Below, piece by piece: positions 144 to 11,767 of a stretch of DNA of 14,577 nucleotides. The position numbers and the translations under genes are program-made. The notes under the pieces are model-generated. The model worked only from the letters and a program-made list of their open reading frames with translations, searched no databases and was not told the DNA's origin. Origin of the DNA: a virus; UHGV virus genome UHGV-1333726. One strand, given 5' to 3'. The first letter of the stretch is position 1, and the number at the start of each line of letters is the position of its first letter.

Positions 144-351
144 CGTGATACCTCTTATCAAGTTTTGACAGTTCGGCGTTTCGCTCCTTCATCTGCTGAA
201 TAGTGTTACTTGCCGTTTTCAGTGCGCCTTTCGTCACCGTGACTTCTTCCTGTAACCTTGCCGCCTCACCCTGGTAATAACATGTTACGGCGGTCAGTCC
301 GGCAATAATGCAAACAACAACGGCGATGATTAACGTCTTCACCTTGTCCAT
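1..351 (-). CDS. Rz: i-spanin Rz, 3' end beyond window
   Basis: ATG at 351 with GGGGTGAG upstream, overlapping the last codons of the endolysin; N-terminal TM segment [19 protein letters not shown] then charged helical region; frame open to position 1 (117 codons). Confidence 0.75.
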
Positions 352-830
352 TTCTCACCCCATTCGCAAACGGCATATTCAACATCGCGGCGGTTAACCA
401 GGCCTTGCCACTTCTTACCGCCAGCGTATACCCAGCGCTTAAGCTGTGCGCACGCTTCCGATTTCTTGCCGTCATTGAGTAGCTTTAATAAGGTTGATGT
501 TTTGAAGTTGGTTGCGCCTACGTTATAGGCGAAGGAATAAAGTGCAGCGCGGGTAAAATCTGATACTTCGACTTTGATATATGGGTCAATCGCTTTTGCG
601 GTCTTGTGTAGATCTTTATTTAACAAAGCATCGCATTCTGATTGCGTGTAAGTCTTACCAAGCATGATGTCTTTTCCGACGTGTCCATAACATATCGTGT
701 AAACACCAATGACATCTCTGTATGGCTTATACTCAACGCCTTCAAGATCTTTTATCATCACCCCCGCAATAGCGATCGCCCCACCAGCCGCCGCCGCAAC
801 AATCTTGTTTTTCAGCGATTGGCTAATCAT
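339..830 (-). CDS. SAR endolysin (T4/P21-type lysozyme, GH24-like)
   Basis: ATG at 830, one base after the holin stop; N-terminal Gly/Ala-rich signal-anchor-release segment [17 protein letters not shown] followed by DLEGVEY...GVYTICYGH lysozyme motifs; the ORF-track start at 911 is a non-ATG upstream extension in an alternative frame of the holin. Confidence 0.9.
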
Positions 831-831
831 G

Positions 832-1032
832 TTACTTATTCCCCATTCGCGCGTCGTGTTCCTCTTGCGCTCGCTTGTTCTCCTGTGATTTGAAGTAATA
901 ATTAACGGCAAATGTGCCTACGGTTGATAAGATACCCACAAAGACGGCAATGTCATTGATGGTTATCGCGCCGAAAAAAGCAGTTACGGCCCCAGTCACA
1001 TACGCACACGCCTCCCGTATTCTGTCGAACAT
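832..1032 (-). CDS. class II holin, pinholin-like (phage 21 S-type)
   Basis: 66 aa; ATG 1032 with GGAGGA 6 nt upstream; two TM segments (first is Gly/Ala/Thr-rich), basic/acidic C-terminal tail ...[15 protein letters not shown]; sits directly before the SAR endolysin. Confidence 0.8.
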
Positions 1033-1052
1033 AGATTTTCCTCCAACAAAGC

Positions 1053-1074
1053 AAAAACCCGGCGCGGGGCCGGG
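1053..1074 (-). terminator. intrinsic terminator-like hairpin (candidate tR')
   Basis: On the minus strand CCCGGC-cccgc-GCCGGG (6-bp all-GC stem, 5-nt loop) followed by TTTTT, ending 8 nt before the holin Shine-Dalgarno. Confidence 0.55.
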
Positions 1075-1102
1075 TAGTTACAGTTTCGCATTGTTAGGTA
1101 AT

Positions 1103-1131
1103 ATTTTAATCTGTTTGTTTTCGACCCACAA
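1103..1131 (-). promoter_or_regulatory. candidate sigma70-type promoter (pR'-like) upstream of lysis genes
   Basis: Minus strand TTGTGG (1131-1126), 17-nt spacer, TAAAAT (1108-1103); weak -35, good -10 and spacing; lies in the only intergenic gap before the holin. Confidence 0.3.
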
Positions 1132-1139
1132 ATACGGCT

Positions 1140-3424: not shown

Positions 3425-3654
3425 TCTTCTGTCCCCCAACGCTCAATGCTGATTAAAAAGTCCCGGATGGCGTGGCGTTCGTCGCGCGTTGGTTTGCGCT
3501 TCCGGTAGATCTTGAAGTCGAACCATTCTTTTTCCTGTTCAAAATCCAAATCGTAAGCAACAGCTTCAATGTATCCGCATTCGTGATACCAGTACGCCAC
3601 GCCAGCACGGACAAAAAAGCGGGTTTTATCCCGCTTGTGTTCATAGATACGCAT
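3421..3654 (-). CDS. hypothetical protein (77 aa)
   Basis: ATG 3654 with GGGGTG upstream, 10 nt after the upstream stop; ORF-track start 3699 would overlap upstream gene by 35 nt. Confidence 0.5.
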   Translation of the reverse strand: MRIYEHKRDKTRFFVRAGVAYWYHECGYIEAVAYDLDFEQEKEWFDFKIYRKRKPTRDERHAIRDFLISIERWGTEE

Positions 3655-5365: not shown

Positions 5366-5558
5366 TGTCTTTATTCCGTCCGTAAATATGTACTGGCTCA
5401 ACCGGTACGGCTGGCAATTCACCATCATTTAACGCGCTTGCCATGCCTAATATTAAACGCGCTTCAGCACCAGTGACTTTCTTACACCATGCACCGCCTG
5501 TTTTATCTTCGAACAAGATAACAGCAAACTGATCGTTTATTTCCAGCTTATCCATCAT
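5352..5558 (-). CDS. hypothetical protein (68 aa)
   Basis: ATG 5558 overlaps the TGA of Q (ATGA); second ATG at 5555. Confidence 0.5.
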   Translation of the reverse strand: MMDKLEINDQFAVILFEDKTGGAWCKKVTGAEARLILGMASALNDGELPAVPVEPVHIYGRNKDNENT

Positions 5559-6049
5559 TCACCCCGTGTTACTCGTTTGATTTCGTTGTCAGCCCGCGCC
5601 TCTTCTTTGAACAATTCAGCAATGGCGTCTTCATAGAAAGCGCGGTATTTCTTCCACCACGTTGATCGGCTTACCGGGAAAACAAGCTGATTAACCGCCC
5701 GCCGTACAAGATCTACAGGGAAACGCGAGTACCCGCGCCCGCCGCAATGCTGGCACGTTTTGAACACTGGCATTTCCGCCGCTTCACTGGCTGCTTTATC
5801 CGGTACTTCGCCACGGCCCTTGCATTGTTTACAATGATTGCGAACTGTCCCATGCCCCTTGCATTTTTTGCAAAGGTGTTTTTCTCCGTATTCGTCAAAC
5901 GTAAATTTATATCCGCCGCACTCCATACAAGTTTTTTCCGTCGCGGCACTCTGGCAATAATCCCGAAATGCGAAAACGGCAACAAGAATAATGAGATCAT
6001 TGCGTTTGGCCTCGTCCAGTTCCATAACGTATTCATAATCTTTTGCCAT
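5555..6049 (-). CDS. Q: late-gene antiterminator Q, zinc-finger (82/QuuD-like) type
   Basis: ATG 6049 with AAGGG upstream (ORF-track start 6073 is TTG); FAFRDYCQSAATEKTC, CQHCGGRGYSRFPVDLVRRAV and C-terminal ...STWWKKYRAFYEDAIAELFKEEARADNEI resemble recalled Q82/QuuD-family motifs; position downstream of ninG/rusA/ninH-like genes fits. Confidence 0.7.
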   Translation of the reverse strand: MAKDYEYVMELDEAKRNDLIILVAVFAFRDYCQSAATEKTCMECGGYKFTFDEYGEKHLCKKCKGHGTVRNHCKQCKGRGEVPDKAASEAAEMPVFKTCQHCGGRGYSRFPVDLVRRAVNQLVFPVSRSTWWKKYRAFYEDAIAELFKEEARADNEIKRVTRGE

Positions 6050-6083
6050 AGCCCTTAAACGCTCTGTAAGCAAAACTACGGCC

Positions 6084-6206
6084 TTATGCTTTTCCTGTTT
6101 TTAAAATAGAAAGATTGGCCATTGTTATCCCTAATTCATCTGCAAGCTCACCAAGAGGTTTTTTGCGCTTGGCCATTATTACATCCAATCTTACAATTAT
6201 AGACAT
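6084..6206 (-). CDS. short NinH-like helix-turn-helix protein (40 aa)
   Basis: ATG 6206 with GGAGG 8 nt upstream; MSIIVRLDVIMAKRKKPLGELADELGITMANLSILKTGKA has an HTH-like core; small HTH gene directly before Q as for lambda ninH; manually found. Confidence 0.35.
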   Translation of the reverse strand: MSIIVRLDVIMAKRKKPLGELADELGITMANLSILKTGKA

Positions 6207-6218
6207 CTGCAGCGCCTC

Positions 6219-6362
6219 CTATATGGTTAACTTTTGTTCCTCCTGAATCTTATATCCAACCTTAAACACTTGTGCTATAAACAGAAGAGATATACCAAAT
6301 ATGCCAAGGATAACATCTACACTTAAGATTGTTTCACACTCAAACCCGTCTATAGCCAACAT
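6219..6362 (-). CDS. possible small hydrophobic peptide (47 aa), next to N run
   Basis: ATG 6362 directly after the N run 6371-6380; MLAIDGFECETILSVDVILGIFGISLLFIAQVF... has one TM-like segment; the longer ORF-track version crosses the N run. Confidence 0.25.
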   Translation of the reverse strand: MLAIDGFECETILSVDVILGIFGISLLFIAQVFKVGYKIQEEQKLTI

Positions 6363-6432
6363 CTCTATCGNNNNNNNNNNGATAAACGCGGTGATTTTGG
6401 GAAGTGGAATTTGAGAATAGATTCCAGATTCA

Positions 6433-6615
6433 TTACTTGCCCCCGTAACGCGCAACAAGTCTTTTGCGATCAGATATTGCTTGCACCAACTTTCTTTCAA
6501 GCTCTTTAAGCGCAAGCAATTCTCGCATGTGGAAAGCCTGTATTTGTCGCACAGTCTCTAAATCATGCTCATCGCGCTGAATATCTATTTGCAGATCTTT
6601 AATTTCGTTTTTCAT
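6433..6615 (-). CDS. hypothetical protein (60 aa), predicted helical
   Basis: ATG 6615 overlaps TGA of upstream gene (ATGA); heptad-like charged sequence. Confidence 0.45.
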   Translation of the reverse strand: MKNEIKDLQIDIQRDEHDLETVRQIQAFHMRELLALKELERKLVQAISDRKRLVARYGGK

Positions 6616-11720: not shown

Positions 11721-11763
11721 TGCGATCACAAAACAAAATGTATATTTATGTGATCGCAATCAC
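11721..11763. promoter_or_regulatory. inverted repeat plus GATC palindrome (candidate operator or RNA hairpin), site A
   Basis: Forward TGCGATCACA (11721-11730) and TGTGATCGCA (11749-11758) are perfect 10-bp inverted repeats with an 18-bp AT-rich spacer; overlapping palindrome GTGAT-cgca-ATCAC at 11750-11763; GATC at 11724-11727 and 11752-11755. Confidence 0.45.
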
Positions 11764-11767
11764 AATG

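Follow-up and report, generated by a model that had tools for sequence, protein, structure and literature searches.

Within a 14,577-nucleotide (nt) stretch of the virus genome UHGV-1333726 (hereafter the window), in which all genes lie on the minus strand, a 107-nt gap separates the stop codon of a 56-amino-acid (aa) open reading frame (ORF; TAA, 1142-1140) from the start codon of a holin gene (ATG, 1032). The window belongs to the mEp021 (mEpimmI) group of temperate coliphages, with 86-89% DNA identity. With a probability of about 65% we read the gap, from its sequence and that of its relatives, as a lambda-type late unit of such a phage: a promoter (pR'), a Q-binding element (QBE), a pause element and a terminator (tR'), uncoupled from the gene for the antiterminator Q. 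The initial annotation of this DNA had proposed a pR'/qut/tR'-like late unit at a distance from Q, and the core of that proposal is supported by the family to which Q belongs, by a skeleton shared with other late units, by sequence constraint, by the uniqueness of the unit and by its separation from Q.

All elements named in that proposal (TTGTGG and TAAAAT at a 17-nt spacing, a GC hairpin and a T-run ending 8 nt before a Shine-Dalgarno (SD) sequence) were found where they had been placed on the minus strand, to which all coordinates of the unit refer. The first is the -35-like hexamer TTGTGG (1131-1126), which matches TTGACA at three of six positions, lies 17 nt upstream of the -10 and is the weakest part of the unit. 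It is followed by the 17-nt spacer GTCGAAAACAAACAGAT (1125-1109), whose 3' part is an invariant 12-nt block, AAACAAACAGAT (1120-1109), the candidate QBE, then by the -10 hexamer TAAAAT (1108-1103; 5/6 consensus matches) and the 7-nt discriminator ATTACCT (1102-1096). Transcription is predicted to start at A1095 or A1094, and not at ATTACC directly after the -10 as had been assumed. The -10-like hexamer AACAAT (1095-1090) would then occupy +1 to +6 and is a candidate sigma-70-dependent pause element (SDPE). GCGAAACTGTAACT leads from there to an intrinsic terminator hairpin, ACCCGGC-CCCGC-GCCGGGT (1075-1057), the tR' equivalent, which has a 7-bp stem with six GC pairs and a 5-nt loop, and the last T of which opens a run of five T residues (1057-1053). 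The distance of about 20 nt previously given between the -10 and the hairpin is in fact that between the likely start A1095 and the hairpin, which begins 27 nt past the -10. Between the T-run and the holin SD GGAGG (1044-1040), which begins 8 nt further on and is invariant among relatives, lies GCTTTGTT.

The gap has the skeleton of lambda-family late units

The target of a lambda-type Q comprises a QBE, a -10-like element, a sigma-70-dependent pause (16-25 nt in the family) and then a terminator (PMC4914094, PMC4005639, PMC9388147). In lambda the QBE sits between the -35 and the -10 (PMC4914094, PMC9388147), and the -10-like element AACGAT occupies +1 to +6 and is followed by GGG, with the pause at +16 (PMC4005639). 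In the window AACAAT, located 7 nt past the -10, carries the critical A2 and T6 and, as far as can be judged from its letters, would serve as such a pause element. Of the two -10-like hexamers that had been pointed out in the initial transcript, AACAAT is invariant and stands in the lambda-like place; TAACTA had to be discarded. Only AACAAT is a credible pause element, because TAACTA varies among relatives (TAATTA, TATTCA, TATCCA) and lacks the key T at position 6.

We compared the gap with the late units of seven reference phages of the lambda-Q family. The lambda unit reads TTGACT-17-TAAATT-tgactc-AACGAT, and that of P22, where P late, qut and tR' (at +31 to +59) are annotated, is the same. 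The unit of ST104, whose Q is the closest outgroup (39% identity), reads TTGCAA-17-TATCAT-aaccct-AACAGT, and that of phi80, with annotated pR' and Q site, TTGCAT-17-TAGATT-catctct-AACGCT. From the -10 onwards the sequences are TAAGAT-tttccc-AACGAT in a Stx2c phage, TTAATT-tgttct-AACGAT in a Klebsiella phage and TAATCT-gattcc-AACGAT in Gifsy-2. Thus AAC[AG]NT is found at the same place in all seven.

The wider outgroup set comprised 47 viral contigs whose Q is 31-40% identical to mEp Q, and it was surveyed without the requirement for a perfect-stem terminator, which missed most real units. An exact unit of -10, N6-7 and AAC[AG]NT was present in 43 of the 47, and the other four carry near variants (AATGAT, AAAGAT, ATCATG). 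In most of these units 30-80 nt separate the start from the terminator, so that short terminated leaders are the rule in the family and the 194-nt leader of lambda is the exception; the position of the P22 terminator shows that placement straight behind the pause region has a precedent. The window sequence, TAAAAT-attacct-AACAAT-gcg plus terminator, would fit the family skeleton exactly if transcription starts at A1095 or A1094, and its 7-nt spacing between -10 and AAC is seen again in phi80 and in one ST104-like contig.

The unit is under patterned constraint

A first motif retrieval from viral contigs returned 52 matches. The unit was found in 47 mEp-type contigs, once per contig; the remaining five matches were rejected as chance occurrences inside unrelated coding sequence. 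Since the -10 and AACAAT were fixed by construction in this search, conservation was re-measured on loci retrieved via the holin protein. Sampled in this way, from genomes whose holins are 89-100% identical, the unit was present in all 44 close relatives, which yielded 42 unique sequences. TAAAAT and AACAAT were each invariant in 42/42.

Mean pairwise diversity among the 42 unique sequences was 0.036 across the 3' part of the spacer and the -10 (1120-1103), 0.059 across the AACAAT block (1095-1076), 0.007 in the hairpin stems and 0.024 across the T-tract and SD (1056-1033), while it reached 0.222 in the hairpin loop, 0.129 in the discriminator (3/7 positions variable) and 0.292, a value like that of unconstrained sites, in the -35 region. 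The corresponding values for codon positions 1, 2 and 3 were 0.024, 0.017 and 0.130 in the holin gene and 0.063, 0.027 and 0.214 in the endolysin gene. Polymorphism affected 19 of 88 core columns versus 75% of third codon positions (binomial 9e-26). The 3' spacer, the -10, the pause hexamer, the terminator stems, the U-tract and the SD are therefore constrained like codon positions 1 and 2, indicating purifying selection, while the hairpin loop, the discriminator and the -35 region drift.

The module of about 75 nt has been retained alongside at least four different upstream genes and with either of two diverged holin alleles (the alternative allele occurs in L046 and L053). It is found exactly once per locus and once per genome of about 54 kb. 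The invariant 12-nt block AAACAAAYRGAT, also present once per locus, stands at the lambda-like place for a QBE, between -35 and -10.

The group Q is of the lambda family and is encoded kilobases from the unit

The Q fragment encoded in the window belongs to Pfam PF03589, the lambda-Q family, and its only significant matches among solved structures (E <= 1e-16) were to lambda Q (PDB 4MO1/7UBM, E ~1e-17); no match pointed to a Q of the phage 21/82 type. The full-length Q of the group (240 aa) aligns collinearly with residues 1-207 of lambda Q (35% identity), a stretch that takes in the torus-forming N-terminus, and its N-terminal 60 residues are especially like those of lambda Q.

The canonical cassette has its unit directly after Q (PMC9388147), as do all 47 outgroup contigs. 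This arrangement was not found here: Q and the unit are 4.5 kb apart in the window, 1.9 kb in mEp021, 3.0-6.3 kb in 30 contigs and more than 6.8 kb where Q lies beyond the fetched locus, and in about 50 mEp-group genomes the sole such unit stands just before the holin gene, once per genome. The Q stop codon overlaps the start of the adjacent ORF, behind which further ORFs are closely spaced, so that no promoter-terminator unit fits beside Q. The displacement by 4.5 kb proposed in the initial annotation is thus borne out, and, set against the adjacent outgroup units, the separation is a real peculiarity of the mEp group. The idea that an inserted gene block caused it does not hold: the intervening small ORFs, which are co-transcribed with Q, form an array that is variable and occurs throughout the group, not a single insertion specific to the window. 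Since this array lies upstream of the unit together with Q, it belongs to the early rightward operon, whose end the hairpin also marks. Because Q acts in trans, the displacement is an organisational and not a mechanistic difference.

In the outgroup loci L161-L208 the pause element stands at a nearly fixed 74-81 nt past the end of Q, despite very different promoter and QBE sequences.

The mEp-group Q carries a Cys-rich insertion of 31-33 aa (CxxC...CxxC, DnaJ-like) immediately ahead of the lambda Q zinc ribbon, as seen in a comparison of the window (5555-6073), L001 (5551-6273) and lambda Q (L008, 87-710). The differences between the two Q subtypes of the group fall mostly within this insertion (24/35 columns).

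Proposed mechanism

Where transcription begins, that polymerase pauses, where Q binds and that the unit depends on Q are inferred. Host sigma-70 polymerase would start at about A1095 from TAAAAT, with the -35 helping little or not at all. Sigma region 2 would then re-bind AACAAT at +1 to +6, and polymerase would pause after about 16-25 nt. Without Q, transcription would terminate at the hairpin and U-tract (1075-1053), giving a predicted leader of about 40-45 nt and leaving the holin, the endolysin and later late genes silent. With Q, which would bind just upstream of the -10 (candidate site AAACAAACAGAT) and join the paused complex, polymerase would read through this and later terminators. 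The late genes downstream of the unit are those for the holin and lysozyme in the window, and in mEp021 those for the lysis protein, terminase and portal.

Weak points of the assignment and alternative readings

A simple promoter scan with a threshold of 4/6 matches per hexamer missed the site because its -35 matches at only 3/6 positions. With an approximate sigma-70 weight matrix the site ranked 7th of 28,988 positions and 2nd on the coding strand, which is respectable but not decisive, and TAAAAT alone was equalled or bettered at only 19 of 29,082 window positions. On its own the pattern of promoter and pause hexamers is weak evidence, and the case for more than chance rests on conservation and comparison.

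Several findings weigh against a lambda-type unit. With a poor -35 (TTGTGG), where the comparators have TTGACT, TTGCAA or TTGCAT, and with no extended -10, the promoter is of doubtful strength. The proposed -35 is present in the window at its 17-nt spacing, but its conservation fails: TTGTnn (type A) occurs in 30 of the 42 unique sequences, while the other 12 have TCGCGC (type B) and a different upstream half, CATAAAAAACAAATAGAT. The type B form includes MagusPhagus, an isolated plaque-forming phage. This weak and non-conserved -35 is one limit on our confidence. The composite of a -10 and a second -10-like hexamer within 5-8 nt is not unusual (9 in the window versus 14.9 +/- 4.2 in shuffles), and its count carries no weight in our argument. 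The candidate QBE is unlike the Q sites of lambda and phi80, and no covariation was found between the two Q subtypes, which differ mainly in the Cys-rich insertion and in body residues 61-113, and the upstream forms A and B. Furthermore, in minimum-free-energy (MFE) folds AACAAUGCGAAA (1095-1084) pairs with UUUUGC/UUGUU (1056-1045), flanking the 3' side of the terminator, and because of this complementarity its conservation could serve RNA structure instead of, or besides, a pause. Covariation was likewise absent from the hairpin and the extended 5'/3' pairing, where all paired columns are invariant and the comparison has no power either way.

Some of these findings lend themselves to another account, in which the hairpin ends the early rightward operon, no transcript starts in the gap and the flanks act as RNA: AACAAUGCGAAA and the U-rich tail would extend the stem, or structure near the SD would tune holin translation or mRNA stability. 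We consider this unlikely, though it is the most serious of the alternatives. The hairpin is canonical and was ranked first among terminator-like sites of the window in a terminator scan; the 51-nt leader from A1095 folds at -20.3 kcal/mol (z = -3.6), with none of 200 shuffles as stable. Terminator annotations cover the hairpin in five relatives: in mEp021, GenBank labels it TERM_5 (score 100), with gp45 and a 'putative class II holin' as its neighbours, and mEp010, mEp013, mEp044 and mEp515 carry ARNold annotations on it. The mEp021 terminators t1, t2 and t5 are called 'experimentally demonstrated' (PMC11893012), and the TERM_5 hairpin may be t5. The pairing of 1095-1084 with 1056-1045 suits this account, as does the pairing, in longer transcripts that start further upstream, of CCU 1098-1096 with the holin SD; so do the unconserved -35 and the commonness of the promoter pattern by chance. 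A terminator alone does not account for TAAAAT and the 12 nt ahead of it being invariant, nor for the exact lambda-like register of -10, N7 and AACAAT, which is common to 54 other lambda-Q-family units. Moreover, the lambda-type Q, which needs a promoter-proximal loading site, would have no other candidate in the genome.

The pairings across 1098-1040, all columns of which are invariant, suggest start-site-dependent masking of the SD or stabilisation of the 5' end.

It is also conceivable, although we give it little credence, that the site works unlike its lambda counterpart, either as a Q-loading or pause site for polymerases that started far upstream or as a node with two inputs, since the unit lies kilobases from Q in a continuous co-oriented array and a quarter of the variants have no -35. 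Were it a dual-input node, early-operon transcripts with CCU would mask the holin SD and transcripts from A1095 would leave it free, so that holin translation would depend on the promoter that made the RNA.

Even less probable is the specific case in which the gap has no promoter of its own and the QBE and -10-like element act on upstream-started polymerases that retain or re-bind sigma-70, a case most relevant to the form without a -35. The existence of that type B form speaks for it, and the upstream genes are tightly packed and co-oriented, so that upstream transcription reaches the site. There is also a precedent in phage 82 Q, which in vitro can engage a complex that contains sigma and has paused some 100 nt from the promoter; but a long nascent RNA there made NusA an inhibitor and not a helper, and excess sigma-70 was needed (PMC4914094). 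Lambda Q threads the RNA 5' end at 12-16 nt (PMC9388147), which is hard to reconcile with kilobase-long transcripts, and TAAAAT is invariant at the exact promoter distance from AACAAT, as expected of a true -10.

Least probable of all is that the hexamers are fortuitous and the gap was merely kept through close kinship: the sampled holins are indeed 89-100% identical and composite -10-like patterns are common, but loop, discriminator and -35 vary while stems, -10 and AACAAT hold, the binomial comparison with synonymous sites gives 9e-26, and the module outlasts replacement of both neighbouring genes.

The Q gene of the window is interrupted

The Q gene is split in the window. Its 3' part (5555..6073, minus strand, as are all pieces of the locus) corresponds to residues 69-240 of the 240-aa group Q, and a 5' remnant holds codons 1-18 (6381..6433). 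The interruption comprises ten N (6371-6380) and a foreign piece of about 276 nt (6095-6370), which encodes a C-terminal DUF2975 fragment together with the N-terminal 40 residues of a Cro/C1-type helix-turn-helix protein. Q homology resumes at about codon 62 via an 8-nt microhomology, GAAAAGCA, with an in-frame TAA just upstream, and this copy of Q is left without residues 19 to about 61. The inserted piece was absent from all 5,426 complete E. coli genomes searched, the prophages of which match the flanks only.

In lambda Q, residues 1-44 form the torus that blocks formation of the terminator hairpin, and deleting residues 1-38 abolishes antitermination but not DNA binding (PMC9388147). The ORF at 5555-6049, previously taken for a working Q, is a truncated remnant that lacks the antitermination N-terminus. 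Since the torus-forming part is gone, as in the lambda deletion, its product would most likely bind DNA but not antiterminate. Q may have been disabled by a genuine insertion, or the interruption may be a chimera of the assembly; should the sequence be accurate, the late switch of this window could not be turned on by its own Q.

Neighbouring features of the window

The first gene downstream of the late unit encodes a class II holin of 66 aa (832..1032, minus strand; Pfam PF16080, E = 1.6e-14), and it is followed by a lysozyme gene (339-830, minus strand; PF00959) whose product has the Gly/Ala-rich N-terminus typical of signal-anchor-release (SAR) endolysins. Because of this neighbour, the label 'pinholin' for the product of 832..1032 is plausible.

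The late-unit gap is not, as had been thought, the only intergenic gap before the lysis genes: a second, probably non-coding gap of about 110 nt lies at approximately 2619-2729. Two perfect TGTGA-N6-TCACA palindromes, the core of the CRP consensus, are located in probable intergenic gaps of the coding strand at 2694-2709 and 11749-11764, where 0.01 would be expected by chance. Across more than 20 related contigs, in three sequence contexts, conserved half-sites enclose a variable N6. A hairpin and T-run, annotated as terminator T10 in mEp554, come after the 2694-2709 copy and its relatives at least, and at 11765 the palindrome overlaps a promoter-like TTGTGA-17-TACATT. These palindromes are candidate sites for host CRP or operators for a phage regulator.

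Another strong terminator-like hairpin, AAGCGGGATAAAACCCGCTT with six T residues (3617-3636, minus strand), lies inside an ORF of the small-gene array between Q and the holin; it is probably the 'T9' annotated within a coding sequence of the same array in mEp554, an equivalence proposed without alignment. Rfam gave no match at gathering score anywhere in the window. With a relaxed cutoff the Pseudomonas rnk leader matched at 1045-1136 (minus strand; 24 bits versus a gathering score of 55, E = 0.05), which we treat as a chance match most likely explained by the hairpin and U-tract. No tRNA genes were found in the window.

Implications

In human faecal samples, mEpimmI phages reportedly equal lambdoid phages in frequency (PMC11893012). 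The same paper describes early N-like antitermination in these phages, and no late promoter or late switch appears in it. The unit described here would give precise locations for the mEpimmI late promoter, pause element, likely Q site and terminator. It would also mean that a lambda-family Q and its target need not adjoin, which matters for pipelines that look for pR' right after Q, as well as for the sorting of accessory genes into early and late. The module of about 75 nt is a compact candidate for a Q-controlled terminator cassette.

Comparison with known systems

The cassettes of phages 21 and 82 share with the gap the logic of QBE, sigma-dependent pause and terminator, but they belong to unrelated Q families with another QBE architecture and other pause positions (PMC9388147). 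In Stx phages, whose order is Q - pR' - tR' - stx/morons - S, a multi-kb accessory block likewise lies between Q and the lysis genes. Unlike here, their block is downstream of pR'/tR' and Q-dependent, and the Stx2c unit is right after Q; the accessory block of the mEp group would, unlike the stx genes, be expressed before Q acts.

Closer parallels are found in phi80, which has the same 7-nt spacing before AACGCT, and in ST104, which has CCTAACA in common with the window, although in phi80 and ST104/ES18-type phages the unit is directly after Q and has a good -35 (TTGCAT, TTGCAA). P22, with its P late, gene 23 utilisation site and t late (BK000583), combines the same skeleton with a short terminated leader. 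Its unit adjoins gene 23, and about 300 nt of leader separate the terminator from the holin, compared to an SD 8 nt past the U-tract here.

With lambda the gap shares a Q of the same family, collinear and with the torus-forming N-terminus in the group's full-length protein, a terminator ahead of the lysis genes, and a -10 followed by AACNAT at +1 to +6 (predicted in the window; PMC4005639). Lambda differs in its strong TTGACT -35, its 194-nt leader (6S RNA) and the location of the unit about 80 nt after Q, whereas here the -35 is weak or absent, the predicted leader has about 40-45 nt, the spacer with the candidate QBE is unrelated and Q carries an extra Cys-rich insertion of 31 aa. Taken together, these comparisons describe an ordinary kind of late switch, the only twist of which is its uncoupling from Q, and this is mechanistically unsurprising.

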